44,227 bases of DNA from a virus (lineage: Duplodnaviria; Caudoviricetes): positions 1 to 44,227 of IMG/VR virus record IMGVR_UViG_3300045131_001670. One strand, written 5' to 3'. Position numbers and translations under genes: made by a program. The notes beneath the pieces are model-generated. The model saw nothing but the letters and a program-made list of their open reading frames with translations, ran no database searches and was not told the origin of the DNA. This document shows positions 1-43,942 of the stretch, one piece after another. The first letter of the stretch is position 1. Each line of letters begins with the position of its first letter.

Positions 1-3000
1 TGTTTTTGAACCGATAGCTATATCAAATGTCATAGCATCAGCAGTTGCCGGAATATCTAAAATAATACTCGCACTCACCACTTGCTTGCGTTGCAATAAC
101 GGCTGTTCCCATCTTGCTGTTTCGTGATGGATATTACTAAATGCTCCAGTAAACTTATCGTAAAGCACAAGACTGGTTGATGCTGATGCGTTGACGTTTG
201 CTCCGATCGCATCGCCGGAATGCAACACCACAGTATGACCTGTAGAAATGCTTGATGTATTCCGTACCCACTTACCGCCAACGTCAAACTGATAACGATA
301 ACTGTCGGCAGCAGATGCCCCATCCGCAGGGAATGTTATTTCGTACCAGTGCTTATCCGGATAGTATACAGCGTATGCATTCTGTTTCTGTGTGGCAGTC
401 AAAGCACTGATGCGTTTGCGGATGCCTTTCAGTTCAACTATCTGCTCACCATTGAAAGAGTAAACGCTGTTATTACCTAACCAGCACAGTACTGAGTTTT
501 CGCACAGTTGAATGCTCTCGTGGCTATCGCACCCGATGGTATCATCAACAGGTGACATACCAAAATTAGTTTGTCCTGGATCTCCGGATATTCTCCATAC
601 CCCACGATTCTTAAATGCGAATACAAAGCCGCCGTACATTCCCAAACCTGTCAGTGCTTCGCCGTTTCCAACATCTATCCATCCGCCCATTTCCGGAGGG
701 GTGTCATCGAAGAATATGTCCGGACAATAATCAGCACGATTAATGCTTGATATGTAAATGCGGTTGTTTTTCGTATACCACATCCTGTTATGGTGTTCTG
801 ATATAATCTGACACCCTGCCGGAGGGCGGCTTGCATACGCCACCATAAATGGCTTGTTGTCCAAATTAATACCCAACATATGCACTGATGTTTTATCGGC
901 TTCAATGCTTGTCAGTAACACGAAGTCTGGTGATGTCGGGGTCGATATATAGATGTTTGTATATTTCGCTGTTGCACCGGCTTCCAGATAAATAGTAAAT
1001 CCGGATGTGGCACGATTAACATCAAAGGACATCTGCTCTGTCTGTCTGGATTCCACATAACCCATTTCGTCACGATAGATGTATGAATATCGCAGGTAAT
1101 AAGTACCCTGAGTTATGGGATTCGTAGTAGCAGTGTCCAGTGATACAACAGGCTTTACTTTAGGTGGTTGATAATCATCAAGAGTATAAACGCTTTGAAT
1201 CGTATTAGTGAAGAATTCCACTAATTGGACCCGATAATTTTCGCTGTCAACGACTGCTATTGTCCCATCATTTAATTGCTCTAATCCTAATGGGTTATTG
1301 AATTGTCCCGGTGCTGACCCATACGAACCGAAAAAGTAATAACTGTCATCAGCAAGAGTATATTTGCCAACACGATGGTTCTGATTATCGGTTAAGTAAA
1401 CATATGCATTATCATTTGACAACAGTAATCCTGCAATTTTAGTTGTCGTATCAGTAATAGTAAAAGTTTTAATTGTTGCACCAGTCGTTAAATTAAACTG
1501 ATAGAAAACGTTATTTCCTGTACTGTAATATCCAATACCATTTTTTACAGTCATCACTGTAGCGTTATTATTAGCCAATGTACACAATAAAGAATTATCT
1601 TTAAATGTGACAGTATATACACCAGAACCAGATTTTTCTAATTGAGTAATATAAACACGGCTTGCTCCGGAACTGGTATGAACACCTAACACATAATAAA
1701 ACGCAGAATCATAACTAATAGATGTACACGTTACGCCTGACGCTAAATTTGCTGTAGGACTGTACTCACCATTTCCATGACACCATAAAGCAGAATCTGT
1801 AATCGTGGTATTTACTACAATGTTATTTGTATCACCATAAAAAATACCAATAGTCGCTCCACCTATATTTGTAGCAGGAGTTACAGATGAAACGGAATTT
1901 GATAAAAGTCGTGGATAATATCTGCTGAAATATGTGTAATCATAATACAAAGCTTCCGATGTGACCATATCTGTCGAATATACAACACCATTTAACTGGT
2001 AATATATTTGTCCGGAATTATCAATATATAATCTGGCGTATATATTAGAAGAATTGCTTATTTTATAACTGGTTGGAGTTATAGGTGTCGTGGTTGTTTC
2101 ATCAAACTTAAACTTATAAATGTATGTATCAGTTCCCGGTACGTACACATAAATTAAATATATCCATCCACCATGTTCTTGAATACAATAATTAACATTG
2201 TTGACACCCAAATCATTATAGTGACTTGTTGCCACGTCATAAACTTTTCCATCAACTCCAGCATTAATAGCATATCTTGTGTTATCTGCTTGTACTTCAG
2301 TTGCTAAGTCAAGCAATGGAGGTTTGTATATCAAGTCATTATATTCTTGAATTCTAATGTTAGGAGATGCGTCTAAGTTATACGGCTTTCCAACAACTGC
2401 TATATGTTCGACACCTGATTCCATAACACTTTTAACAGCAATGGGAACCTGATTGTTTTTATACGAAGGCGAATTAGCCGCCGGTAAATACCCGGCACCT
2501 GGTGCTAAATCTCCCGGCGAAGATGACACGGCGTTTTTCAGTGGTGTTCCAAATATTTTTTTTACACGTGCTGTCCCATCAACAAAATACATACCGCCAT
2601 TTAACTCAGCAGCACGGATGGGATTAGCATGGTTAAGATTAATATCGCAGTCCAACTTTGATGTGGAAAACTTCATGGCATCGCTGTTGGTTATCATAAT
2701 GTCTGATGTTGTTCCGGATGCATTAGCAGTGTATAACACTAACCTCTTGCCACCAGTCACTGTATCGTAATCAGTGCGAGTTTCGTAATGCTCCCACAAT
2801 CTAACCTTTGTGCCACCACTGGTGATGGTAGCCGTTTCCCTTGCGACATCTGACTTTACCATCTTTGCTCCGGATGGTGTCAGCAGAACGTTCGCATTCT
2901 CCCAACAATCGTCATCACCTAATAACGAACGGCTATCGGTATCAAGATTGATACCTTTGTTAAACGTTATCACTTTTCCGATGTTGTTGTTCTTAGGCAT
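1..3000 (-). CDS. Tail nozzle / tail tubular protein B-like (P22 gp10-type) protein with internal NHL-repeat region; 3' end runs off the window
   Basis: Manual translation from ATG at 3000 (MPKNNNIGKVITFNKGINLDTDSRSLLGDDDCWENANVLL...) stays open for 1000 codons to position 1 (...FDIAIGSKT). Follows the adaptor gene. Has nozzle-like segments (HNRMWY..NRIYISS, IGCDSHESI) and an NHL repeat FGSYGSAPGQFNNPLGL...IAVVDSENYRVQ. Confidence 0.75.
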   Translation of the reverse strand, partial: MPKNNNIGKVITFNKGINLDTDSRSLLGDDDCWENANVLLTPSGAKMVKSDVARETATITSGGTKVRLWEHYETRTDYDTVTGGKRLVLYTANASGTTSDIMITNSDAMKFSTSKLDCDINLNHANPIRAAELNGGMYFVDGTARVKKIFGTPLKNAVSSSPGDLAPGAGYLPAANSPSYKNNQVPIAVKSVMESGVEHIAVVGKPYNLDASPNIRIQEYNDLIYKPPLLDLATEVQADNTRYAINAGVDGKVYDVATSHYNDLGVNNVNYCIQEHGGWIYLIYVYVPGTDTYIYKFKFDETTTTPITPTSYKISNSSNIYARLYIDNSGQIYYQLNGVVYSTDMVTSEALYYDYTYFSRYYPRLLSNSVSSVTPATNIGGATIGIFYGDTNNIVVNTTITDSALWCHGNGEYSPTANLASGVTCTSISYDSAFYYVLGVHTSSGASRVYITQLEKSGSGVYTVTFKDNSLLCTLANNNATVMTVKNGIGYYSTGNNVFYQFNLTTGATIKTFTITDTTTKIAGLLLSNDNAYVYLTDNQNHRVGKYTLADDSYYFFGSYGSAPGQFNNPLGLEQLNDGTIAVVDSENYRVQLVEFFTNTIQSVYTLDDYQPPKVKPVVSLDTATTNPITQGTYYLRYSYIYRDEMGYVESRQTEQMSFDVNRATSGFTIYLEAGATAKYTNIYISTPTSPDFVLLTSIEADKTSVHMLGINLDNKPFMVAYASRPPAGCQIISEHHNRMWYTKNNRIYISSINRADYCPDIFFDDTPPEMGGWIDVGNGEALTGLGMYGGFVFAFKNRGVWRISGDPGQTNFGMSPVDDTIGCDSHESIQLCENSVLCWLGNNSVYSFNGEQIVELKGIRKRISALTATQKQNAYAVYYPDKHWYEITFPADGASAADSYRYQFDVGGKWVRNTSSISTGHTVVLHSGDAIGANVNASASTSLVLYDKFTGAFSNIHHETARWEQPLLQRKQVVSASIILDIPATADAMTFDIAIGSKT

Positions 3001-3748
3001 AAATTGTCTGAGTCCTCTGGATGTCGCAAGCTTCATTCCATAATGACATTGCCGCTTGCGCCCTCGCAACACACGCAGGATCATCTGCAAGGATAGTCAT
3101 TCCTATACGACCGACCGCATAGAATATCGGTGCTTCTTCTACTTCCGGACGCAACACGAAAGATGACGCTCCGGAGGTGAGGACACCATACATACCTGTT
3201 CCCGGTGTGGCAACAGGGAAACATCGGATATTGAGTATCAGCGAATGAGTTGTGGTGATTTCTGTGGTGACATCGGTGATGATTGTTTCTACCGCAGGAA
3301 CTGTCGGACACGGCAGCAGGATGATAGATGGAACTGATGACGATGTGCTTGCCGACTGTTTTGAAACCCATGCGTATGTTGCCGGACCTGTATAGTTATT
3401 CTTTAAATAAGCTAATCCAAAATTGCTGATGGCTTCGGCTTCAGTAATAAACGTTATGTCACGATACTGATATGTAAACGTGGGTGTTCCACCATCTATT
3501 TTTGTCTGGATTGTTGTCTTATATACTATCCCTTTGATAGTTATTAAATCTTTAGGCAAGGCGTATTCCGCTGTTCCGGATACGATAGCGATGGTATCTT
3601 CACGATTAAGACAGTTGGTTTCCCGGCAAAACCTTGCGTAGCCATCGTTCAGATAACGCTCAACCATAGTTGAAGTCAAATGACTGTTATTAGTCGATGG
3701 CTCTTTAAGCATTTCGTATACTCTTGCTGTTGCATCTGTTAATGTCAT
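2993..3748 (-). CDS. Head-tail adaptor / tail tubular protein A-like
   Basis: N-terminus with YLNDGYARFCRETNCL then IVSGTAEYALPKD typical of podophage adaptor proteins; directly upstream of the nozzle-like gene. Confidence 0.7.
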   Translation of the reverse strand: MTLTDATARVYEMLKEPSTNNSHLTSTMVERYLNDGYARFCRETNCLNREDTIAIVSGTAEYALPKDLITIKGIVYKTTIQTKIDGGTPTFTYQYRDITFITEAEAISNFGLAYLKNNYTGPATYAWVSKQSASTSSSVPSIILLPCPTVPAVETIITDVTTEITTTHSLILNIRCFPVATPGTGMYGVLTSGASSFVLRPEVEEAPIFYAVGRIGMTILADDPACVARAQAAMSLWNEACDIQRTQTIYA

Positions 3749-17008: not shown

Positions 17009-17081
17009 TGGGCAGGGTGTGGGACTCGAACCCACAATACAGAGAGCGACTCTGCCACGATACCATTTCATCAACCCCACC
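17009..17081 (-). tRNA. Atypical tRNA-like gene (nominal anticodon CGC, Ala; possibly a pseudo-tRNA)
   Basis: G GTGGGGT TG ATGA-AATGGTA-TCGT G GCAGA-GTCGCTC-TCTGT ATT GTGGG-TTCGAGT-CCCAC ACCCTGC CCA. Full cloverleaf with canonical D and T loops and a non-canonical anticodon loop. Confidence 0.7.
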
Positions 17082-17356: not shown

Positions 17357-17731
17357 ATGTCTAAAAAATGGTGGTTTAAAATGCCAACCGAGTTATACAA
17401 AGAGCGGAACTATCTGCTTAAAGAAAGAGATGGCGGGTTAATCTATTCCATATACATCGCTATGCTTTCCGAAAGCGTTAAGTATAACGGCAAACTGATG
17501 ATGTCACAATCACAACCACACACCAAAGAATCATTAGTCAAACTAATAGGCATAGGAAACATCAGAACCATGAACAGAGTAATCGATATCCTACAAGCAC
17601 ACAAGCTTATAGAATATAGCGAAAAACACAAATACTACTTTATGACTGAAATACCAGAATTAACCATGTCCAGGCAAACACTTGCATCATATAGAGCAAA
17701 CAACAGATATAAAGAAATAGACGAAAAATAA
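17357..17731 (+). CDS. Phage replisome-organizer N-terminal domain protein (stand-alone or truncated)
   Basis: WWFKMPTELY...GGLIYSIYIAMLSES..NGKL...PHTKESLVKL...LIEY matches my recollection of the Phage_rep_org_N pattern; only 124 aa. Confidence 0.7.
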   Translation: MSKKWWFKMPTELYKERNYLLKERDGGLIYSIYIAMLSESVKYNGKLMMSQSQPHTKESLVKLIGIGNIRTMNRVIDILQAHKLIEYSEKHKYYFMTEIPELTMSRQTLASYRANNRYKEIDEK

Positions 17732-17797
17732 CCAAATGTTTCGTCAAAGTTTGACCAAACATTTACGAAACTTTAACCAAAGTTTGACCAAACTTTT
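17731..17797. repeat. Iteron-like direct repeats (possible origin)
   Basis: CAAAGTTTGACCAAAC occurs twice, with degenerate copies (ACCAAATGTTTCGT, GAAACTTTAACC), directly after the replisome-organizer ORF. Confidence 0.6.
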
Positions 17798-18693
17798 ACT
17801 CTCACTCCCTCTCAAAAAAAACATACAGTTGGTATACAAAACGGTATACACAGTTATAATAAGATGTAGCTTTGAGATCGTGGGGTATTCCGGCATACGC
17901 CGTACCCCCGACACGGCACGAAGCGCATAAAGCCAATTCTACACAAAACACAAACCCACAAAAAAAATACCACCCACTACCACGCTAACAACAACCGCCA
18001 AAGCACCACCCTTTCGGTATTTGAGATGTTGGGAAAATGGGGCGAGGGGGTATGATGACATAAATGGAACGGGCGGTCGGCGAACGGGTTCGCTACTACC
18101 CTACACACAAAACCACCTATTGGAACGCTCCAAATGAATGCTGATTGACCTGATTGGATCCAGTAATCAGGCAGAATGATACCAATGAAGGGGGAGGGGT
18201 GGGGATTGGCATTGCTGCAGGAAGATCGCAGCAGGTTGCCCGGACAATACCGCCATTTGGCAATTAACGTCTGATAATGACCATTTTGTAAAGTGAATTT
18301 AGCATCATTACAACATTTTACAACACCTGTTTAGCAGATGTAGCTTTAATACCGATTATTGCGGACAAATGCAGGATTTCTGGCCGCCAGGCGGATTCTG
18401 GGCATTTGGCGCAAATGTGCTATTCGTTGAGAGGGCGGAGTAGCATTATTGTGCCAAATTGGAGTTATCACCCTATGCGTCCGTGTATCGGGAGCGGTTC
18501 CGGTGGCAACCTATCATATCTCCCTTCTCCCCGTCATTTTTCTATAAATCCTTCATTTTGCCGCTATTTTCGCCATTTCCATCCTTATATATGCAATAGC
18601 CGTATTAGGTACGATTTAAATCATTATTTCCTTCTCATCGACATTATTTTTCAATTATTTTCAAAAAAAGTGGTAAAATTGACCAAAAAGGGG

Positions 18694-18722
18694 TTGACGC
18701 CCCTTGCTACGAGGTATATTAT
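18694..18722 (+). promoter_or_regulatory. Strong early promoter of the plus-strand cassette
   Basis: TTGACG-17 nt-TATTAT preceded by A/T tracts (UP-element-like). Confidence 0.8.
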
Positions 18723-18775
18723 AGGTATCAGGATAGCGATTTGAGAGGGAATCCTCAGTAATATGTTTCTATTTG

Positions 18776-18843
18776 CCTTTAGTAGCGGTCTGGACGAACT
18801 CCAGAAGATACCATTTAAACGTGGTGATAAGACGGTCTGAGGC
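18776..18843 (+). ncRNA. Unclassified three-way-junction RNA candidate
   Basis: Closing GCCTT(T)AG/CTGAGGC; hairpins TCTGGA-CGAAC-TCCAGA and TACCA-TTTAAACG-TGGTG; purine-rich linkers. Confidence 0.45.
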
Positions 18844-18845
18844 TA

Positions 18846-18909
18846 TATGATGTCATGGCGGTATTTTCCGCTATCTGACGATGGTCTAATTTAAGACCGA
18901 AACATTATA
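18846..18909 (+). ncRNA. Hammerhead ribozyme, type III
   Basis: Stem III TATGATGT/ACATTATA, GTC cleavage triplet (cut after 18854), stem I ATGGCGG/CCGCTAT, core CTGACGA(T), stem II GGTCT/AGACC, GAAA. Confidence 0.9.
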
Positions 18910-18922
18910 GAGGGGTAATATC

Positions 18923-19144
18923 ATGGGTTTCTACAAACGTTATAACACACGGCGATCGCTTTATGTTACTAAGGCTCGCTTTGACAGCACCTGTGCTGAA
19001 ACCGGACAGCTTATTAAGACTGGAGAAGAGATGGTTTACGACCCTAATACACGGCAGTGTTACCATTCTAATAGTATTCAAGCTAAAGAGACCAGACAGC
19101 AAGCATGGAATGAAGCTAACTGCATGGCTGATAGCAATTGGTAG
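18923..19144 (+). CDS. Small early phage protein
   Basis: AGAGGGG RBS; KARFDSTCAETGQLIKTGEEMVY motif; first ORF after the promoter and hammerhead. Confidence 0.75.
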   Translation: MGFYKRYNTRRSLYVTKARFDSTCAETGQLIKTGEEMVYDPNTRQCYHSNSIQAKETRQQAWNEANCMADSNW

Positions 19145-19208
19145 AATACTCGCACTGACGAGCGGTATGCGATAATCAAAATATAATCGCAAAATAAGGG
19201 GTGTTATC

Positions 19209-19385
19209 ATGAAAATCTATGTTGTGTGGGAAATTCCACGTGGTGGAGATTATGAAGAATTCCGTGGTGAGTTTTCCAACCGAATTAATGCAATTAACTT
19301 TGCGTCTAACCTTTCGGGTAAAATCCGGATAGCGGTAATTGATATGGCTATACCGCCGCGCTTTGACCGATCATTATTGCGTTAA
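19209..19385 (+). CDS. Small early phage protein (58 aa, not in the ORF track)
   Basis: AAGGGGTG RBS; MKIYVVWEIPRGGDYEEFRGEFSNRINAINFASNLSGKIRIAVIDMAIPPRFDRSLLR. Confidence 0.7.
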   Translation: MKIYVVWEIPRGGDYEEFRGEFSNRINAINFASNLSGKIRIAVIDMAIPPRFDRSLLR

Positions 19386-19417
19386 CCATTTTCTCCCCGA
19401 TCGTTCTTCGGTCGGGG

Positions 19418-19481
19418 TCTTCTAACTCTACTACCGCTTAATGGTAGCTGTCGGCAGTCAGCATTGAAGAGGACCGGAAGG
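19418..19481 (+). ncRNA. Twister ribozyme, P1 type
   Basis: P1 TCTTC/GAAGG; T^AA (cut at 19423/19424); P2 CTCT/AGAG; P3 TACC/GGTA; P4 GCTG/CAGC; L4 TCGGCAGT; pseudoknot T1 CGG/CCG after the conserved GA; pseudoknot T2 AC/GT. Confidence 0.88.
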
Positions 19482-19491
19482 GGGAAATCCA

Positions 19492-19815
19492 ATGATCGTG
19501 TTAACTTACACACGTCCTGACACTGAGGGCGACATCTTACAGTGGCGGTTCCCGACAGTGGGGCATCTGCTTGATTCCCATGATTGGGACAACGATGGCT
19601 ATCTGGATGCGATTTATGACGGCATCCGGCAGAACGATGCTGATATCGATGTCATCATCTGCGAGATTGAAGACGAGGGCAATCAGTATGACTGGACCTT
19701 GTATATGACTAACGCCATTAGTGAGCAGGACTTCTGCGATTACTGGAATCTTTACACTGAAGAATGGTGCAGTCCTGAGGGCATCGCTCCGGTTTGGCGA
19801 GCGAGTGTCGAATAG
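19492..19815 (+). CDS. Small highly acidic early protein
   Basis: AAGGGGG RBS; 107 aa with 24 D/E, 4 R and no K. Confidence 0.75.
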   Translation: MIVLTYTRPDTEGDILQWRFPTVGHLLDSHDWDNDGYLDAIYDGIRQNDADIDVIICEIEDEGNQYDWTLYMTNAISEQDFCDYWNLYTEEWCSPEGIAPVWRASVE

Positions 19816-19817
19816 TA

Positions 19818-19882
19818 TCTGCTCTGACGATGGGTCGTTGACTCCGACCCGAAACCGCAAGGATGCGGTCAGCAGAAGTCAA
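19818..19882 (+). ncRNA. Hammerhead ribozyme, type I with loop-II pseudoknot
   Basis: Stem I TCTGCT/AGCAGA, core CTGACGA(T), stem II GGGTCG/CGACCC, GAAA, stem III ACCGCA/TGCGGT, GTC (cut after 19870). Loop II TTGACT is complementary to AGTCAA at 19877-19882. Confidence 0.93.
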
Positions 19883-19911
19883 TTACTGCAAAATTAAGGG
19901 GGGACCATATT

Positions 19912-20178
19912 ATGGTAATAACTTGTCATGACCACGGCGATAGCGTAGCTGACCGCTTTAGCGTGGTATTCTGGAGCGAATTTGATGAAGAGTCAGGTTT
20001 ATATCCAGTTACGTTTTTTTCAGCCGATTGTGATAAACCGAATGGTGTTTGCCAGCATGATGCTATTCCTGAAAAGTGGATAGCTAATCTGGGTGTGCAG
20101 ATAGAATTCGAAGAGATGCCGAAAGCTTGCCAGAAGGTTGCTAACAGGGAAATGGACGAATTAATGGGGAGGCTTTAA
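19912..20178 (+). CDS. Small acidic early phage protein
   Basis: Poly-G RBS; DHGDSVADRFSVVF...PNGVCQH...LGVQIEFEEMP resembles an uncharacterised phage family. Confidence 0.75.
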   Translation: MVITCHDHGDSVADRFSVVFWSEFDEESGLYPVTFFSADCDKPNGVCQHDAIPEKWIANLGVQIEFEEMPKACQKVANREMDELMGRL

Positions 20179-28619: not shown

Positions 28620-28636
28620 GATATCTCCTTGCTAAG

Positions 28637-28665
28637 AGGTTAACAAATATAGTTAACAATGTCAA
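28637..28665 (-). promoter_or_regulatory. Promoter of the replication gene block with repeated GTTAAC sites
   Basis: TTGACA-17 nt-TAACCT on the minus strand; two TTGTTAAC copies overlap the spacer and -10. Confidence 0.6.
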
Positions 28666-33931: not shown

Positions 33932-36900
33932 TTACTTGTACACCCCTTTTTTATATTTTTTCACAATTGTGTTGTATTCTTCTGGTGTTAATTTAACCTT
34001 GTTCTCTTTTTCGTAATTTTCCAAAGTTAATTTAATCAGCGAATCATTTAACACACGCTCGTCCAGAATCTTGTTCTTGTCATTATTCAAGAACAGCAAC
34101 AGTTTCCGTTTTGCATCATGTATGTTGGTATTCGGGTCATCTAATTCAAACCCGATCGGTTTATTCCGCAACAACTCTTGAACATCTTCAGAATCAAATT
34201 GCCGCACAATCTTTTCGGCTTTAGTTGTCGCCGATATCATATTAAGCTTGCCTGATAATTCAGCGTAATGCAGATACTCCATCGGGTTTAGTTCTTTATA
34301 TAATGGAGAACCTTTTTTACCTTCTGTCAGTCGGCGTTCGTACTTTTTAATATCTTCATAAACATCGTTCTGCTGCTGGGATATCATGCCTTCCTTTGGA
34401 ACCCAACTGGAGATACCGGGCATTTTCTCTTGCAGGTCAATGCTCGGCTGTGGCGGCAGTAACTTACCTTTACCCACAAGACCTATAATATCTAAAACAT
34501 AACCGCCTAATCGCCCTGCATGACCTGTAAACAGCGTCTGGATAACTCGTGGTGATTGCATTAACTGGGTCACGGAATTGCTGACACCTGTTTGTTTTTC
34601 AGCCATTGCAATCATCTTACCGATTACCATCGCACCCTTGCTTGTATTAGCACCTGCTTGCATATAACCCGGCAATCTCTTTTCGGATTCCGGAATTAAC
34701 GGAGTACCTGCAAATGTCCTGTTCCAATATATTTGCATTTCTGGAGATATGGCAGTAATTGGGAATGGTGTTGCAGGTGACTGAGCAAGTATGCTTTGCT
34801 CAATATGCCGCCAAGCTTTCGGGTCCTTTTCAACTGCTGTTCTCAGTATACGCTCAGGAATAGCCTTAAACAGCAACCCATACATATACGGCAACGGAAC
34901 CATCACAACGCCTTTCGGTGTGCGTACCCAGAATATTTTATCACGGATATAATCTGGTAATCTGTTATAATCCTCATCGTCTTTATTGCGGAAATATAAA
35001 ATTGTTGCCGGTAAAGTTAATCCCAGTACACCACGCATAATTGCCATTCCACGTGTTTCCGGATTGCGTAGTGTGCGGTAGTCACGATAGTTACCTTGCA
35101 GGTTACTATTCAAAAACGCCCATACCTTGTTGGCTCCGGTTTTCTTTACCCATTCACCTTTCTGTTGGAATGGCATCTGGTCGATAGCGTCATATACTGC
35201 CTGTACCAACTCATCACGAGTTTTGGCATCTGCCCATTTTACCTGTGACCCATAGTGCGTAAATTTGGCGTACAGGTCAGTCATGGAAATGAAATCTTTA
35301 TAACTGTTATAGCCATTGGAAAACACCTGTATAAACCGCTCTCTCATGTTCTGAGGAGGACGCATCTTATCGAGTGCTTCCTTAACTCTCACACGATCCG
35401 CTCCAACAAGTGATGCTCCATAACCCACAGATATATTAAACTGTTGCCATACTGAGTCAGGTGCTTTACCTGTAGCAATATATTTCCATGCGTTAATCAT
35501 GTCTTTGGGAGTAATCTTAACTGTCCGGTTAATCATGATGGCTTGCATATCACGCACAAGGTTAGCTGACATAAAGTCAGGGTTATCGATTGCGCCGATG
35601 CGCAGGAACTCGGTCATTTGTTTTAACGCTTTCCATGTGTTTGGTTCAGTGACAGTTAACATTCGGAAAATGTCGGGAGCAACTTCATAGAATTCCGCTT
35701 TGCCGTTTCTGTATATTCTGACGACATTGCTCTTGCCGTTATATGACCCACCGGGAATAAACAAGGTCCTATCTTTCTGGATGTCTACCAATGACCCAAT
35801 GCTTTGTCCTTCCGCAGCAGATACAATATCCTCAATGGTTAACGTTTGCATCTTCATTGGTGCAGGAATTGGGTCGGCGAATACGCCACCACCACGAATG
35901 CGTCTGGCTAAATCGACAGTAGTGGTAATCATTTCGTTTCTTGCAGCGATGGAATGATAAAGATATGTATCACGAATGATAGACATTATCGGGTCATGCA
36001 TTGGCAATAATGAACCTTTGCGTTCATAGGACTTTTTAGATATTTCTCCGCCCTTCTGTTTGCCACCAGTTTCCATTTCGACATCACGATACAACGGCAC
36101 ATAGTGCGGTCGTTTCTGTCGCCATGCCTTCGCATCTTCTGCTGATATTAATCCTTGCTCAACACGGAAGTTAAGCAAGTGTTCCTGATATCTATATATG
36201 CGGTCAGCCAACGCTTTATATTTGGCTTCCGTCTGTTTCACCACGGCTTCATACGTTTCTTTCGGCAACGGAACAACTTCGTCATTACCTTTCTCGTTGA
36301 TGTAGTCAATGGATTCTTTCGCAATCAGGTAACTGCTGAATTCTTTCATCTCTTCCGGCGACAATCCCTTCACGATGTCCTGTAACGGCTCGGAAATGAT
36401 TTTATTCATATTATCCGTAACACCTTTACTAATCCACGCAGAGGGAACGCCAGACACCTTAGCAAGTGCGGATAAAACCTTCGGGTTGCTGGTTGCCGGA
36501 AGTTTTGTGCCAGTCTGGTTTTCGTACATCTGCACCATCTGTTGCAGTACAATCTCGTCATCAAACAATGCCCGAATAACTTTATTTTCCCCGGTCAGGA
36601 CGCTATCAGATTTTGGTTTCTGTGGGTCAGTAACGATTGTCGACATCACCTGTTGCAATGCTGACTGGTTCTTAAACGACAGCACCTGCTTTCGCAACAA
36701 CTGGATGCCTTTGGACAACTCGGCGTTCTTACCGAGCTGGGATTCAAAGTATTTATAGAATGTCGGAGCGTCAGCCAACGCCTTCGCCGGATCGTAAATA
36801 TAATCTACCATCCATTCGGCAAATCCTTCAGTCATTTTATCTTTAGCACCAGCATACGCTAATGGTTCGAGTTCCGGAGCGAACGCTGGCGGTATCGGCT

Positions 36901-39900
36901 TGAGATTACGTCCGGACATTCCAATCACAACACTGTGGAAGAAGTGACCATTCTCGTGAATCATTGTCTGGATGTCGCCGGGCGTTTTGATGCGAATAAC
37001 ATCTGTAAACGGCTTAAATATACCAAGCACACCTTTACCGGCACGGAATCCACCTTTACGGCTTTTCAGTCCGATGCTGTTTAGTGTGTCGATAATATCG
37101 TTCAGAGTATATACTTCATCGTTAGGAACGCCTGGACCATAAGTTGGTGCAGCCTGTTTTTTATTGCCCATGCTTGTTGACATCAGCACTTCTTCCGGCG
37201 GCGGTGGCGGTACAGGTTTGCCATTGCTATCCAGAGTTGTCGGCATCGGCACTGGCATCAGATTTTTCTTATATCCTTCCTTAAGAAATTCGGTGACTTG
37301 TTCGTTTCCTTCTTTAGCCACTGATAACAGTTGTTTGCCATCAAAGAATGCATGACCATTACGCATATCCACAGGAAGGAATTTTACTGTCTTTTTATCG
37401 TGGTCAAGTTTATAGAACAGGTAATCTTTTTTCCCGAATGCGGTAGAGTAATCAATAGGTCTATCCATTGCCACCATTTGTTTTCCGTCTGTGGTAATGG
37501 CTACATATGGTGGTAACCCATTAGTTTCAGTCACTTCTCCTGTTATATCATCTACAATTATACGTGCCTTTGCAGTATTCCAATCAGGCAATACCTTGTT
37601 CATTACTTCGTCATACTTGTGTTCGGTGGCTGTGGAAAACTTTTCCGTCTTTGCCGTTTCCTGCCCCGTAGCGAGTGATGCTTCTGGTTTTGGGGGAATA
37701 GGTGCAGTAGTTAAATCAGGGTAATTTGTAAGCACTTCTGGCGGTACGTTTTTACCTTTAGATAACGCATAAATAATATCTTTTTTAGTAAATCCAAAAT
37801 TATCTGGTATTTCTTCGGGCTTTCCTTGTTTATTCCAAAAATTTACTTCTGTATTTTTAATTTTTTCTTTTGCTATATCAATTAGATTTTTAGGTATGTT
37901 TATACCGTTTGACATATTTTTAATTTTATTTAAATCTTTATTGTTAAGTGTTTTTTCGTGAGAAAACGGCAAATCAGAATCTAACAATATTTCATTATCA
38001 CCACCTCTTGTTTTAGATAATTCACCTTTTAATATATGTGGTTTAGCATTACCTTGAATAAAATTATATTCTAATATATTTTTAGCCATAGTTTGTATTA
38101 ATTCTTTAGCTTTTAATTCTAAAGATTCTCCAACTCTTGACCTTACAACAGTTTCAATATAATTTGGAAATATATTATTAACACTTATACCATCTTCGTT
38201 TATATTAAAATTAGCAGCATTTTTACTTTTTTCTCCAATTTTAGGAATAGTTTTTGAATATCTTATAACAAGATTTTCACCATTTAAAACTCTATTAAAA
38301 ATATTTTCAACAGATTCTATCGTTTTGTTAACGTCAACAACTTGATTAGGTTTAACAGGTGCGGATTGTGGTGTTTTCTGCTCTTCCGATTCTTTTAAAC
38401 CTTTTTCGGATTTGGTACTAAACCTTATATCCGAATTCTTCCCACTGAAGTCGCCGTTGTTGCCTGTGGCGGACTTTATTTGGGTATCGTTGAAGGCAAA
38501 AATGACATCATTTTCAAGAGGAATACCATCGTATCCGTTTTTAAATATGATTCCATCTTTACCTTTGTTTTGTGCTTCATATACTGCGTTATTTTTAAAA
38601 CCATTAATATCATATATTTTCTTACCATTAATTTTAAAATACATATTTTCTGTATGATATTGCTCTGCATATTTTTTAGCGTCAATGATAAGAGGATTTT
38701 TTAAGCTGACATATAAATCCATTATATTGTCAGTCTTTTTTACACCACGCTGTTGTTCTTTAACAGTATATTTATCATTATAATATTTAGCTACCTCTTT
38801 TGAAGTTGTCAACCATATCCCATCAACTTTATTTTGATCGCCAAATCTCGTATTGGTTTTCGTATCAAATACAGTAAATTCCGCATTTGTCCCATGATAA
38901 ACCACCATAGGTCTACCCTGCTCGTCAACAACCTTAGAATCCCCGAACCACTTGTTGAAGTTTTTAATGCCTTCTTCAGTCGGGTGGATAGGCTGACCGA
39001 GAGAGTTTTCGGATTTGGTGGAGAACTGCTTGCTGCTGGGAGTTGTTTTTGCTGCCAAACGCTGAGCATCTTTAATAGACTTGTCCATAGCTTTAGCGGC
39101 TTTCTCTTGAGCCTTAGCCACTTCTACCTGAGCAGGACTCATCAACTGTCCTTTATACTCAACAGTATCACGTTTCCATTTTATAGGCATCTTATCATTT
39201 AATATATCATTAACCGCCTTATCAACGGACGGCATATGTGGGTCTTCTATCGGAGGAGCATAACCTTTCAGCATCTCCTGATTAAGCTTGTCATCAAAAA
39301 TAGGCTTAACGGCTTTTTGTTCAATAAATTGTCCCTCGTTATTATAAATCTTTCTGTCAATAATTAACTTATAATAATCTGGATTTATTTTTAACTTAGG
39401 GTCATATCGATACGGCAAACCTTCGCCATCTGCGGATATCTTTTTACCAGTAGGTTCTCCTTTTTCGTACACAAACTGAGGGAAGACTGGAGTGATACCA
39501 TAGTCTTCGCACATTTCAAGATATTTCTGTACATTTCCTTTATGTTCTTTAAACGGCGGTGTTACTAATTTGAAATCAGTTGAACCTGCTGTTTTACCAA
39601 CACCCCACGCACCACCATATTTTTCATTCTTTTTCATGTTATCTTGAACAATTTGTTTTTCTTCCGCTGATAAACGCCCTCTACGCCATCCTGCTATTTT
39701 ACTACCCTGGGTCTCTGTGTAGTCTGTAAAATCCATATTTAACGCCATTCTTCTTACTACACCTAATCCTGACCTGTGGTACGGAATAATATAGTCAATG
39801 TTTTTATCTGCCATCAATGCCCATATATGCTCGTCAGATGCCCCGATAGCAACAGTACCAACAGTATCACTATATAATTTACGTAACTCTAAAGCTATCT

Positions 39901-42900
39901 CTAATGGCATCCCTTCTATAGGGTCAAACATTAATTTACCTTCAGCATCAAATCCCGGCTTTAAACCTTTTATTGATACTGGTATTAATGATAAATTAAT
40001 CATCATTCCTGTCTTGCCAAATGCCCTTGCAAAGTCCGGAACTTTTGTATAGGCGTGTCCTTTTAATCCGACCATGCTCATATCTACGATAGCTTGCATA
40101 CCATCAAGAAGATGATGTAGTTCAAAGTCTGACCATGATTGCCATCGTTGTCCTGATTCGTCATTTGCTAATTCTAAATATTCTCGTCCTTTCTTAGATG
40201 AATAAAACTTTCTTATCTCATCGCTGTACTCAGTACGAGTTTCTGTAGCCTTAGCGTTTACCGCAGAAAATATAGCACGGACATCTTCAAACGGATGGCG
40301 ATATTTATTGCTATCTGCTTTATTAGGGTCGTACTTAGGGTTATCGTAATTATATTTAGGGTTATCAGATTTCATATCTGCCAATAAAGTATCTAACCCT
40401 TTTTGCGTAAGGAAATACTCTTTCGGAATATTAGGGAATCTGTCCATAACTTCATTCAATAAATTGCCAACAAACATTCGTTTGGTTTCTACATAACATG
40501 GTCCACACGAAACAGCAATTCCATTATTTTTTAAAATCTCACGAATATACAAGAACTCAGAATCATTTACCGCTCGTCCCAGTTTCATCTGAACTGATTC
40601 TATTGTAGCTTGCATAATATATCTTTTCATACATAACGTAGAAAAGTCTACAGATTTTTTATAATGTGGGTCTGAATTATTTTTTAATGGAGAATATAAA
40701 TCTGACGGCACATAGTCTAATCCTAAATCAGCATTCTCAATAATAAAAGCAGTCACATTGTCTAACGATTTAACCCAATCATTAACTTCTTTCTCAGAAA
40801 TATTATGATCTTTTGCCCATTGAATAACTTGTTCACGTTCTCTTTGCCATGAACCAATAGAAAACTTACTGCTTGGTGCAATAGCATCTGCTGACTCACT
40901 CATAATAACACTGTCTACCGCAGCGTTAAACTCTTCTGACAATTGCTTATTTGCCGCTTTTTCTTTTAAGTTCTTCTTCTCAATACCAGCAACATCTAAT
41001 TCTTGTGGCTTTCTGTTCCAAACCTCGCCTGACCGCATCTGTGAAAAGATTCTTTCTGCTGCGGCATTGTTCGGTGTCAGTATCTTATTGACAATGTTCT
41101 GGAAGAATCTTTTAATCTTTCCGAATATTGTATTCGGAACAGGCTTATCATTCCAGTTCTCATAAGCTATGGCAATATTTTCTTCGTTGCCATACTTGCG
41201 TACTAACGCCGTATATTCTTTTTCTGTTATTGCTCCCATCTTGAATGCGGCGTGAGCAACCTCGTGGTATACAGTTCTGCCTGTACCGATGTTAAAAGGT
41301 TTCTCGGCTGTCCCACGTGCGATACTGATGACACCATCAATGCCTAAAATTTTCTTACCATCAGCGTCTACAATATCGAACATACCATTAGCGTAGTAGC
41401 CTTCCTGTAAATCCGCATTGTCAATTTTATCTGGATTTTTAAAGCGGAATTTTCTACCGCCAATTTCAACATCAAAACTGCCATCTTCTAATTGCACCAC
41501 AGATGTCGCTGTCGGCATTGCCGCTTTAATCATGTTGGCATTTAAGCCGTTGACCGGGTTATCATTATGGTCACGAATGTCCCAGTTTTTATTTTTCGGA
41601 TTCCACTCTACTTTTAACCCTGTACCATCTTCATGCACAACAACAAATCCCTTGCCTGTTTTATACACGTCAGACATCGGGAAATGGTTATATATATTCT
41701 GCATAGCAGATTCCATGATAGGAGAAGATGGGACTACCTCGGCATTTTTCAGTGGTATTCCTTCGGGAAAATATTTTTCCATAATGTCAGGATACTTTAA
41801 TGCCATAACCTTAATCATCGGGGTAATTCTTTTTCCTTCAATTGCCCTGACAATAATGTCATGCTCAGCAGAACCTTTATTTCCATTCAATTCTACAGTT
41901 AAGTTTCTTGACCATTCTCCCGACTCTTGTTGGCGTACTATTTCACCTTCTTTAGTTAACGGAATAAAAGGCTCATACTCTCCAACTTCCTGTTTATACT
42001 TTTCTTCCCACTGATAAGCCTTGCCCATACTCTCTTTCTTTTTTTCTTCTACCTGAGCAACAAAGGCTTCTTTGTCATCAACGACAAAGTACCCCAAATT
42101 AGGATCGCTATTAATAATCTCATCCTGAGTTCGCTTATCAAACTTCGTAAAGGTTTCTTTTGATTTGATTAACTGTTGGTCAAAAGATTCAAGAGCCTGT
42201 TGCAACTGGTCAATAGTTTCGCCTTCCTGTGCCTTAGTCGGGTCTTCCTGTAACTCTTTAATCCTTTCTTCAATACCACGTTTGGATATTTCAAGATACC
42301 TGATAGCCTTAGCAGTGCTTTCAGCGGATTGACGCTTAACACGAATCTTCGTTCTATCCCCCTGTACTGCCCCTATTGCCCCAAGTACGCCGAATAAGGC
42401 ATTCTCGTATGTAAACAACTCTGGCGACATCTGGAGAGCCATGTTGGTCAAAACACCCATTGTTGCGCCGGTAGCACCCTTTGCTACTTCACGCCCTACC
42501 TTGCTTGCTACATTGTCCATGAGCGGTGTCAGTTTACCAGTGATAGCATGAGATAATCCACCAACAACATTCATGTGGATAATTTCTCTCTTCAGTTCTT
42601 CCGGATCAATTTTCTCGCCAGCCATCGCACGACCGATTGCGCCTTCCAACGGAATCGCTGTATTAACCATGATGGTGGATAACGCTTCACGCATCCCCGG
42701 CTTAAGCGAACCCAACACGCCTTCAGCAGTTGTTGCTGTATTGGCAATCTTTTTAGCGATATAGCTTTTCTCTAAAATCTTTTCGGGGATAAGTATCTTA
42801 GACGCTAATTTAGCGGCGGCTTCCCCTCCCCACATAAATTGTGGCAGTTGTGCCGTTAAGCTTGCAGATGCATATACTTTTGGGTCTACCTGCAAATCCT

Positions 42901-43942
42901 CAGGATTGATAAGAGATTCGCCGATAAAAGGAATCTGAGATATACCTGCAGCAGTAATGGTCAAGCCTGTCGTTGCTGACTTCTCATCTTTCTTGCTGAT
43001 GGCACGTGTCGCCGCCGCATTCTCCTGGTCCTTAATAGCGTTCTGCCATCGTTTCTGTTGTTCCGGCGACCACGAGTTATAACCAGTAGGAACAGGCATC
43101 TGACCTTTCTGCCACGGAGTTAACTCAGTAAGAATATCAGGCTTTTTCTCCGGTGTTAATCCATATGATTTGATATACCCGACTGCCTTATTTAGCGTTG
43201 CGTCAAGCTTCTGAAATTTCTGTTCTTCCATAATATCCGGAATGCTTAACCCTGATAGAGCGTGAGTTGTTGATGCTTTAAACTCTTCACTTCTGTTCTG
43301 AGCGGTAGAGTATGCTAACTCCAGATTAGTTTTCTTCAGTGACTCAGCACCCTTAGGGTCAAGTTTGGCGTATCTGGCAATAATATCCTTAGGAAGATAT
43401 ACATCAGTTCTTCCGCTATCAATAATTGCGGTCCAGGCGACAATACTGTTAAGCAGATGCTGTCGTTCGTCAACGGATAGCGGAGCGTCCCATGCTTTCT
43501 TTGCCAACGCATTGACTGATTTATTAAAAACCTGCAAGGCTTGAATAGGTGCTTTCTGTCCCGGCGGTGCGTATAGTTTGTGATATTGTGCTAATGCTTT
43601 GGCTTCATCGGCTTTGTATTTTTCATGCTTGATAGTATTGTATGTGCTTTCGATTAAACTTGCAGCATTTGTTAAAACATTACCTTCTAATTTACCTTCA
43701 AGTATTGGAGGTAAAGTTATTTTACCCGATGGTTTAGGGTTAGCTTTTTCATAAGCTTCATAAAATTCTAAATCTGAAAAAGATGCTTTTCGTGTAACAG
43801 GCGGAGCAACAGGCGGCAACGGCACAAACGGCTTTACAGCCGGAGCAGAGAACACTGGATAATCGTCCGGCAGTTCTATTGGTGCGGATGACACTGACTG
43901 CTCAGGATAATCGTCTGGCAATAATATCGGTTCGTTGCTCAT
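33932..43942 (-). CDS. Giant polyvalent internal virion (ejection) protein with HExxH peptidase-like motifs, ART-PolyVal-like and LPD38-like domains
   Basis: 3336 aa. HEVAH and HENGH motifs; KWFGDSKVVDEQGRPMVVYHGT...QIKSATGNNGDF (ART-PolyVal pattern); C-terminal DEDYNRLPDYIRD...VPLPYMYGLLFKAIPER (LPD38 pattern). Confidence 0.85.
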   Translation of the reverse strand: MSNEPILLPDDYPEQSVSSAPIELPDDYPVFSAPAVKPFVPLPPVAPPVTRKASFSDLEFYEAYEKANPKPSGKITLPPILEGKLEGNVLTNAASLIESTYNTIKHEKYKADEAKALAQYHKLYAPPGQKAPIQALQVFNKSVNALAKKAWDAPLSVDERQHLLNSIVAWTAIIDSGRTDVYLPKDIIARYAKLDPKGAESLKKTNLELAYSTAQNRSEEFKASTTHALSGLSIPDIMEEQKFQKLDATLNKAVGYIKSYGLTPEKKPDILTELTPWQKGQMPVPTGYNSWSPEQQKRWQNAIKDQENAAATRAISKKDEKSATTGLTITAAGISQIPFIGESLINPEDLQVDPKVYASASLTAQLPQFMWGGEAAAKLASKILIPEKILEKSYIAKKIANTATTAEGVLGSLKPGMREALSTIMVNTAIPLEGAIGRAMAGEKIDPEELKREIIHMNVVGGLSHAITGKLTPLMDNVASKVGREVAKGATGATMGVLTNMALQMSPELFTYENALFGVLGAIGAVQGDRTKIRVKRQSAESTAKAIRYLEISKRGIEERIKELQEDPTKAQEGETIDQLQQALESFDQQLIKSKETFTKFDKRTQDEIINSDPNLGYFVVDDKEAFVAQVEEKKKESMGKAYQWEEKYKQEVGEYEPFIPLTKEGEIVRQQESGEWSRNLTVELNGNKGSAEHDIIVRAIEGKRITPMIKVMALKYPDIMEKYFPEGIPLKNAEVVPSSPIMESAMQNIYNHFPMSDVYKTGKGFVVVHEDGTGLKVEWNPKNKNWDIRDHNDNPVNGLNANMIKAAMPTATSVVQLEDGSFDVEIGGRKFRFKNPDKIDNADLQEGYYANGMFDIVDADGKKILGIDGVISIARGTAEKPFNIGTGRTVYHEVAHAAFKMGAITEKEYTALVRKYGNEENIAIAYENWNDKPVPNTIFGKIKRFFQNIVNKILTPNNAAAERIFSQMRSGEVWNRKPQELDVAGIEKKNLKEKAANKQLSEEFNAAVDSVIMSESADAIAPSSKFSIGSWQREREQVIQWAKDHNISEKEVNDWVKSLDNVTAFIIENADLGLDYVPSDLYSPLKNNSDPHYKKSVDFSTLCMKRYIMQATIESVQMKLGRAVNDSEFLYIREILKNNGIAVSCGPCYVETKRMFVGNLLNEVMDRFPNIPKEYFLTQKGLDTLLADMKSDNPKYNYDNPKYDPNKADSNKYRHPFEDVRAIFSAVNAKATETRTEYSDEIRKFYSSKKGREYLELANDESGQRWQSWSDFELHHLLDGMQAIVDMSMVGLKGHAYTKVPDFARAFGKTGMMINLSLIPVSIKGLKPGFDAEGKLMFDPIEGMPLEIALELRKLYSDTVGTVAIGASDEHIWALMADKNIDYIIPYHRSGLGVVRRMALNMDFTDYTETQGSKIAGWRRGRLSAEEKQIVQDNMKKNEKYGGAWGVGKTAGSTDFKLVTPPFKEHKGNVQKYLEMCEDYGITPVFPQFVYEKGEPTGKKISADGEGLPYRYDPKLKINPDYYKLIIDRKIYNNEGQFIEQKAVKPIFDDKLNQEMLKGYAPPIEDPHMPSVDKAVNDILNDKMPIKWKRDTVEYKGQLMSPAQVEVAKAQEKAAKAMDKSIKDAQRLAAKTTPSSKQFSTKSENSLGQPIHPTEEGIKNFNKWFGDSKVVDEQGRPMVVYHGTNAEFTVFDTKTNTRFGDQNKVDGIWLTTSKEVAKYYNDKYTVKEQQRGVKKTDNIMDLYVSLKNPLIIDAKKYAEQYHTENMYFKINGKKIYDINGFKNNAVYEAQNKGKDGIIFKNGYDGIPLENDVIFAFNDTQIKSATGNNGDFSGKNSDIRFSTKSEKGLKESEEQKTPQSAPVKPNQVVDVNKTIESVENIFNRVLNGENLVIRYSKTIPKIGEKSKNAANFNINEDGISVNNIFPNYIETVVRSRVGESLELKAKELIQTMAKNILEYNFIQGNAKPHILKGELSKTRGGDNEILLDSDLPFSHEKTLNNKDLNKIKNMSNGINIPKNLIDIAKEKIKNTEVNFWNKQGKPEEIPDNFGFTKKDIIYALSKGKNVPPEVLTNYPDLTTAPIPPKPEASLATGQETAKTEKFSTATEHKYDEVMNKVLPDWNTAKARIIVDDITGEVTETNGLPPYVAITTDGKQMVAMDRPIDYSTAFGKKDYLFYKLDHDKKTVKFLPVDMRNGHAFFDGKQLLSVAKEGNEQVTEFLKEGYKKNLMPVPMPTTLDSNGKPVPPPPPEEVLMSTSMGNKKQAAPTYGPGVPNDEVYTLNDIIDTLNSIGLKSRKGGFRAGKGVLGIFKPFTDVIRIKTPGDIQTMIHENGHFFHSVVIGMSGRNLKPIPPAFAPELEPLAYAGAKDKMTEGFAEWMVDYIYDPAKALADAPTFYKYFESQLGKNAELSKGIQLLRKQVLSFKNQSALQQVMSTIVTDPQKPKSDSVLTGENKVIRALFDDEIVLQQMVQMYENQTGTKLPATSNPKVLSALAKVSGVPSAWISKGVTDNMNKIISEPLQDIVKGLSPEEMKEFSSYLIAKESIDYINEKGNDEVVPLPKETYEAVVKQTEAKYKALADRIYRYQEHLLNFRVEQGLISAEDAKAWRQKRPHYVPLYRDVEMETGGKQKGGEISKKSYERKGSLLPMHDPIMSIIRDTYLYHSIAARNEMITTTVDLARRIRGGGVFADPIPAPMKMQTLTIEDIVSAAEGQSIGSLVDIQKDRTLFIPGGSYNGKSNVVRIYRNGKAEFYEVAPDIFRMLTVTEPNTWKALKQMTEFLRIGAIDNPDFMSANLVRDMQAIMINRTVKITPKDMINAWKYIATGKAPDSVWQQFNISVGYGASLVGADRVRVKEALDKMRPPQNMRERFIQVFSNGYNSYKDFISMTDLYAKFTHYGSQVKWADAKTRDELVQAVYDAIDQMPFQQKGEWVKKTGANKVWAFLNSNLQGNYRDYRTLRNPETRGMAIMRGVLGLTLPATILYFRNKDDEDYNRLPDYIRDKIFWVRTPKGVVMVPLPYMYGLLFKAIPERILRTAVEKDPKAWRHIEQSILAQSPATPFPITAISPEMQIYWNRTFAGTPLIPESEKRLPGYMQAGANTSKGAMVIGKMIAMAEKQTGVSNSVTQLMQSPRVIQTLFTGHAGRLGGYVLDIIGLVGKGKLLPPQPSIDLQEKMPGISSWVPKEGMISQQQNDVYEDIKKYERRLTEGKKGSPLYKELNPMEYLHYAELSGKLNMISATTKAEKIVRQFDSEDVQELLRNKPIGFELDDPNTNIHDAKRKLLLFLNNDKNKILDERVLNDSLIKLTLENYEKENKVKLTPEEYNTIVKKYKKGVYK

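Follow-up and report, generated by a model that had tools for sequence, protein, structure and literature searches.

What is the RNA that lies between the predicted transcription start and the first hammerhead of a small-gene phage operon, and does it act before or after the hammerhead has cut? The window, i.e., the whole stretch of DNA that was analysed, is a virus record of 44,227 bases and encodes terminase, portal, RecT-like, RusA-like and endolysin genes. The public runs containing its sequence were lake and freshwater metagenomes; host identification was attempted and no host was assigned. On the plus strand, an operon of small genes of unknown function extends from a sigma-70-like promoter to a terminator-like hairpin. 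It carries three ribozyme-like RNAs, which were recognised by core scan, folding and eye. The features discussed here are the following, "the relative" being a divergent version of the locus from two lake runs:

18694..18722, plus strand: sigma-70-like promoter (TTGACG 18694-99, 17 nt, TATTAT 18717-22), 10/12 consensus matches
18729..18774, plus strand: 5' part of the leader, with a small hairpin at 18745-18756 by folding; a single change (18766) in the relative
18763..18840, plus strand: ATG ORF of 25 codons; SD-like string 13 nt upstream, within a hairpin
18775..18788, plus strand: P1 5' strand GCCTT(T)AG (18775-18782) and linker TAGCGG (18783-88), unchanged in the relative
18789..18805, plus strand: hairpin P2 with 6 pairs; in the relative, 8 Watson-Crick pairs and a changed loop
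18806..18808, plus strand: junction linker AGA, unchanged between two rewritten hairpins
18809..18826, plus strand: hairpin P3, 5-6 pairs; 5 pairs and an altered loop in the relative
18827..18836, plus strand: linker ATAAGACGGT
18827..18846, plus strand: linker (A)TAAGA and P1 3' strand, with a predicted anti-ribozyme strand (18833-18846) by complementarity
18846..18909, plus strand: type III hammerhead with CUGACGA (18875-81) and GAAA (18899-902) as its core and a predicted cut after C18854
18910..19144, plus strand: SD GAGGGG, then the 73-aa first gene (18923-19144) of a viral family with unassigned function; other sequence in the relative
19419..19480, plus strand: twister-like RNA by eye, both pseudoknots drawable; cut predicted after U19423
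19818..19876, plus strand: type I hammerhead; cut predicted after C19870
20913..20950, plus strand: terminator-like hairpin at the operon end

Transcription plausibly starts near 18729, as predicted from the promoter, for which a scan gave 10 sites this good versus 7.8 in shuffles. From 18664 to 18788 the window and X14 record 19 have just 2 differences. Two palindromes lie over the promoter at 18690-18714, one with GGGG/CCCC around the -35 box and the second at 18702-18714; they are possible operator sites. A near copy of the second sits at 28627-28640. The 73-aa product of the first gene falls in an unnamed family of mainly viral members (57 matches at E 0.001; Atlas clusters 94-100% viral), and gave no match in Pfam and PHROG searches. 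Elsewhere in the window, ARAGORN annotated a tRNA-Ala(CGC) on the minus strand (17010-17080; Rfam 35.3 bits). Short AAAGTTTGACCAAA-type repeats at 17729-17807, directly after the replisome-organizer gene, are possibly origin iterons. A polyvalent protein of 3336 aa with ART-PolyVal and LPD38 domains is encoded at 33932-43942 on the minus strand. Scans of 30 and 18 window proteins found no reverse transcriptase.

A preliminary description of the locus had proposed a three-way junction in the leader. Its stems and linkers are all present, with the closing stem beginning at 18775 rather than 18776. The P1 3' strand CTGAGGC (18837-18843) pairs with 18775-18782, and three further predicted pairs (A18784-U18836, C18786-G18834, G18787-C18833) extend P1 toward the junction. 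When the isolated domain was folded, pair probabilities were 0.76-0.97 for P1 with its extension and 0.62-1.0 overall. The minus-strand RNA was rejected as the structured one, with -13.2 vs -18.4 kcal/mol on the plus strand. The folding energy of the whole leader had a z of +0.28 (125/200 shuffles equally good), and that of the junction a z of -1.3 (104/1000 shuffles as good) and -1.5 (16/200); three-way junctions at least as stable occurred in 11 of 1767 genome windows of 69 nt. The P2 and P3 hairpins alone had a z of -3.4, with 0/200 shuffles as good. By energy alone, the junction is not above chance and the two hairpins are exceptional. The junction is lifted above chance by the pairing kept in the relative.

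We compared four runs over 18500-20100 and found the relative in X12 (record 13) and X14 (record 21); these two lake runs possibly belong to one campaign, so the relative was counted as one sequence. X14 record 21 retains 18759-18916, 19389-19486 and 19819-19904, with 303 and 242 other letters between them, and both of these joints recur in X12, so that the genes differ around RNA modules that are retained. The relative had 11 substitutions and 7 gaps over 18721-18916 (196 nt). Fifteen of these 18 differences fell within the 40-nt hairpin segment 18788-18827, where 3.7 were expected (scan-corrected P 5e-6). The 32-nt core of the fold had 0/18, an invariance no higher than that of the flanks, with 3 events in ~156 nt outside the hairpins. 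The P2 segment had 6 substitutions and 4 gaps. By hand count, P2 arrived at its 8 Watson-Crick pairs via a two-sided change plus two inserted pairs, P3 retained 5 pairs, and both loops changed. When an equal number of random changes was introduced, 1.5% of the trials left P2 with 6 pairs or more and 0.06% left it with 8, and P3 had 5 pairs in 16%. Both hairpins are still paired despite carrying 15 of the 18 differences, and are therefore real.

The closing stem P1 is invariant in the relative and thus shows no covariation. The covariation for which the preliminary description had suggested a test was found for the hairpins, in one relative, and not for P1. We consider the two hairpins well supported and the junction moderately supported. 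The hammerhead region 18847-18916 is identical in the relative. Haplotypes nearer the window (X12 record 12, X14 record 20) may carry differences beyond those given here. One X11 contig (depth 3.5) tracks the leader to 18769 and continues with 107 unrelated letters, which hints that the junction can be exchanged and that another module may take its place.

The relative also bears on coding potential. The leader had been called ORF-less, which does not hold: besides the ATG ORF there is a TTG ORF of 25 codons at 18773-18850. The alignment gaps of the relative, from which its frame was derived by hand, shift the 25-codon ATG ORF (running gap sum +1, +2, +1, +2, +3, +2). The peptide is therefore not conserved, ruling out a conserved leader peptide.

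The neighbouring RNAs frame the fold. The three-stem domain ends two bases before stem III of the type III hammerhead, which follows at zero-to-two-base spacing. This hammerhead is a predicted ribozyme with the full core, three stems and a GUC triplet (folding z -3.8; 0/200 shuffles as good). In the twister-like RNA the changes of the relative cluster in P3, a dispensable stem, and in the type I hammerhead we found a compensatory C19856G/G19867C. Searches of the whole Rfam library with E up to 10 detected none of these three RNAs; neither did RF00008 and RF03152 for 18846-18909, nor RF03160 for 19419-19480. A missing Rfam match is therefore weak evidence here. In the relative, ribozymes are kept and the genes between them (18916-19389, 19486-19819) are replaced; the ribozymes may act as constant joints across which genes are swapped. 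A piece released by two cuts would end in a 5'-OH and a cyclic phosphate, and ligation could close it into a circle. Past the type I hammerhead, the relative seems to lack gene 19912, and its loose end there looks like the beginning of gene 20180. The spacer 19140-19210, between the first two genes, is predicted to form a weak three-way junction hiding the next SD (z -1.25), and contains a CUGACGA heptamer without GAAA. Some other loci carrying homologs of the 73-aa gene also have structured RNAs. L133 has an array of three type II hammerheads at 2388-3439, the first just before the homolog, an arrangement found in L133 alone (1/20 loci scanned). L125-L127 have a structured RNA in common at ~2400-2500, directly before the homolog, for which Rfam gave no match in L127.

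The three-stem fold itself, which the preliminary description had called unclassified, gave no Rfam match above a cut-off: the best one in the whole library was TUG1_2, with 21.6 bits vs a cut-off of 90. This negative includes hatchet, HDV-like and glmS and has low power, as clear neighbours are also missed. Several known classes were rejected on their structure. Hairpin ribozymes have two conserved internal loops, A and B; the fold, judged by eye, has a single internal loop, its AGAA and GUC are without the needed flanking helices, and AGAA is lost in the relative. Read by eye as a degenerate hammerhead, the best type I version (GUAGCGG and GAU) has 4/9 core bases, and a hammerhead core scan of 18775-18843 found none. 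Twister requires two pseudoknots made by a terminal loop; here L2 could form no more than 3 pairs, and L3 no more than 4, with a junction strand or with the other loop, and the relative has altered both loops. Twister sister has a three-way form, and its topology resembles that of the fold in the closing stem, internal loop, short stem and junction with two hairpins. The model RF02681 gave no match at E 10, in a set of Rfam models that also misses clear neighbours. The P4 terminal loop of twister sister is described as conserved (PMC6154101), whereas both loops here are rewritten in the relative. The six-pair pseudoknot that joins P1 loop and junction in pistol (PMC6154101) was not found in the fold. 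Resemblances to retron RNA, Y RNA and Csr decoys, judged by eye, were too weak to keep.

Searches for homologs returned this site alone, with little power for distant members. Linker-pattern scans gave 2 and 42 matches in viral contigs and 15 in metagenome contigs, none folding as the junction and none beside a hammerhead; they require exact linkers, so that diverged members are missed. BLASTN against phages and plasmids gave short chance matches only. Neighbour-gene loci numbered 0 for the first gene alone, 6 for the terminase and 1 for the replisome organizer, and the identical one of the terminase loci ends before the fold region. First-gene alignments added 24 viral and 5 genome loci, and the patterns gave 15 loci for hammerhead and 43 for twister, none of the latter twister-like. 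The covariance model R1, weak as it was built from a single sequence, found no real match in 99 of 124 loci (best 19 bits, hairpins absent), in 29 further loci, in 50 whole records (0/50) or in the rest of the window. A structure descriptor run over 156 loci and the window (1.1 Mb) recovered only this site. Runs X13, X15, X16 and X19 had nothing over 18690-18935. The listing of runs containing the window named no RNA run, and two 151-nt contigs from the RNA run X22 did not cover the junction and so speak neither for nor against the RNA. A description of the motif was not found in the literature, where subscription papers and the PMC5737381 supplement were outside the scope; the latter may hold a matching motif. 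Together, the covarying hairpins and the Rfam searches bear out the proposal of an unclassified structured RNA in a ribozyme-rich phage operon. The structured RNA is real, uncatalogued and confined so far to one phage group.

The P1 3' strand can also pair with the hammerhead core, which the preliminary description had missed; a role in cis before release is therefore at least as likely as one after it. The strand 18833-18846, which includes the P1 3' strand, is complementary to hammerhead 18894-99 (6 pairs) and 18881-87 (7 pairs). The alternative duplex is predicted to remove stem II of the hammerhead and two core bases. Its pairing with the hammerhead core (-13.1 kcal/mol) is matched by 0.21% of 14,715 genome 14-mers, and it is the best 14-mer of the leader in this respect. 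With position taken into account, a 14-mer this good occurs in 5.2% of the 879 stretches of 115 nt drawn from the genome, and the cross-pairing, at ~5% by chance, is suggestive only. The best upstream 14-mers for the other two ribozymes reach 3% and 7%, uncorrected. Pairing between the P1 5' strand and the SD is ordinary (11.5% of 12-mers as good). Both cross-pairing partners are invariant in the relative, giving no covariation for the switch or for P1.

Predicted ensembles do not settle on one state. Over 18775-18910 the energies were -41.6 with an active vs -39.9 with a blocked hammerhead, and over 18775-18925 they were -41.9 vs -45.1. The states are close, 2-3 kcal/mol apart in a direction dependent on the span. 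The folding model is unreliable here, with hammerhead stem III alone at just 0.05 within 18844-18925 and P1 ranging from 0.28 to 0.96 with transcript length. SD bases 18912-15 are predicted to be unpaired at 0.86-0.92 after cleavage, and 18909-13 at 0.01-0.02 in the precursor. A second blocking helix, 18763-69 with 18899-905 (P 0.94), was rejected as it is broken by the change at 18766 in the relative; a 7-pair complement of this kind occurs in 33% of stretches. Such predicted helices can therefore be chance. The 13-mer 18833-18845 is shared with L081, which has a type III hammerhead of its own whose cut site and stem I consist of these bases. That hammerhead lies at ~775-835 on the minus strand of an apparently unrelated phage, for which we found no terminase match and an empty BLASTN result. 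Across the 15 upstream regions of this comparison, 13-mers in common with the window occurred at one other place in the window.

We tentatively read the three-stem fold as a regulated gate on hammerhead cleavage, with a probability of roughly one in three, and rank this reading ahead of a released small RNA, of passive hairpins and of a new ribozyme, in that order. In the proposed mechanism, a closed junction would let the hammerhead fold and cut, and an opened junction would block cutting. P1 would form first in transcription and hide 18833-18846. It could then be shifted by a binder of the purine-rich junction, whether a small molecule or a protein of phage or host, or alternatively by a ribosome translating the short ORF that overlaps the fold. 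Once the junction is open, the strand 18833-18846 would pair with hammerhead 18881-87 and 18894-99, and the freed P1 5' strand could pair with the SD of the first gene. Cleavage would yield two products, a leader of 126 nt and an mRNA with a 5'-OH end, in which the SD is predicted to be more accessible. Modelled in this way, the layout is that of a sensor domain, a switching P1 and a ribozyme as output. The variable hairpins on a constant core are an aptamer-like pattern, and the twister-like RNA likewise varies in its dispensable stem. The phage genes suggest no ligand, and the gate comparison draws on one relative only. In the account given in PMC9481103, no known aptamer turned up within 2 kb of small self-cleaving ribozymes, and the prior for a gate is therefore low. 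More specifically, the unit might be a natural allosteric hammerhead, which we regard as a long shot: a new aptamer class would bind a host signal in its three-way junction, e.g., a nucleotide messenger of stress or anti-phage defence, P1 would close, and the freed hammerhead would switch on the first gene of the phage early operon.

A constitutively cutting hammerhead offers another possible reading. The freed 126-nt leader, with a 5'-triphosphate and a 2',3'-cyclic phosphate, would be a functional small RNA whose junction binds a protein, e.g., serving in the early infection as a decoy for an RNA-binding factor or a factor of host defence. The promoter is near consensus, and the leader stayed almost unchanged throughout, also in the 46 nt that precede the junction, while the genes of the relative were replaced. 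In contrast, the upstream DNA of X14 record 16, a record tied to the relative phage through similar depth only, has 25 substitutions and 12 gaps over 18500-18693. The released RNA is predicted to fold into the junction (P1 0.83-0.87). A search of the phage genome for antisense targets gave nothing better than E 0.14, a result more in keeping with a protein partner than with pairing. However, no partner or mimicked RNA was identified, variation of the loops between phages excludes loop-displayed sites, and the cross-pairing with the hammerhead would be left unexplained. A cut made by the fold itself is unlikely. The active site of such a new small self-cleaving class would lie in the G/A-rich junction and the internal loop, in tandem with the hammerhead. 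The context is like that which yielded twister sister, pistol and hatchet, although other structures from such contexts did not cleave, as reported in PMC6765202. The operon holds three ribozyme-like RNAs, and the variable hairpins on a constant core are hammerhead-like. Yet the fold has no pseudoknot and no conserved loop, and a second cut <80 nt from the hammerhead, with no conserved gene between, has no evident use.

It is somewhat doubtful that the structure serves RNA stability or spacing only, as two protective hairpins with a closing stem formed by chance. The clustered compensations would then come from template switching or a single recombination event, the flanks would be conserved as promoter, ribozyme and recombination linker for gene swapping, and the 3' strand would possibly be a relic of an older hammerhead, as the 13-mer within the L081 hammerhead could suggest. 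A single template-switching event can turn a hairpin into a perfect one (bioRxiv 10.1101/2021.04.15.439925), and P2 of the relative is the perfect inverted repeat expected of such switching. The exceptional energy of the hairpins alone (z -3.4 vs -1.5) and the result that the searches run gave no homolog beyond the phage group point in the same direction, and the departure of the X11 contig at 18769 (depth 3.5) suggests that the junction may be dispensable. However, the AGA linker and both hairpin bases keep their exact register between the rewritten hairpins, the extended P1 is predicted at 0.76-0.97, and the neighbouring ribozymes share the core-constant, stem-variable pattern. If passive, the fold would be one more orphan phage RNA motif. 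If the gate is true, it would be a natural control of a small self-cleaving ribozyme, of a kind reported in PMC9481103 as not yet found. The relative also shows ribozymes fixed while the intervening genes were exchanged, and the 180-nt unit is a compact, directly testable candidate for an aptamer-ribozyme pair.

RAGATH motifs are orphan structured RNAs near self-cleaving ribozymes. The fold shares this context, as it adjoins hammerhead and twister-like RNAs and their genes, and resembles RAGATH-type orphans in its phage-type operon, short genes and multistem structure. It differs in that it abuts the ribozyme and can cross-pair with it, and in its restriction so far to one phage group; no Rfam family matches it, and motifs absent from Rfam may do so. 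Clustered hammerheads of phages and prophages are described as several ribozymes cutting a polycistronic RNA of small genes (PMC3088659). The reason for which phages punctuate such operons with self-cleaving ribozymes is an open question (PMC6765202). In a haloviral case, 13 nt separate the hammerhead from the first gene that an early transcript carries (PMC3088659), and the hammerhead here also ends 13 nt before 18923. In contrast to the mixture of hammerhead and twister-like RNAs here, with its three-stem domain, the account of these clusters describes no such upstream domain. According to PMC9481103, aptamers have yet to be found next to small self-cleaving ribozymes, and such pairs might need undiscovered classes. 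The same source names a single natural allosteric ribozyme, in which a c-di-GMP-II aptamer is combined with a group I intron in Clostridioides difficile. The partner here is instead a small phage hammerhead, and the 5' domain is no known aptamer. In the intron system a structured 5' domain is positioned to direct the folding of an adjacent ribozyme through alternative pairing, and a similar arrangement is predicted for the leader described here.
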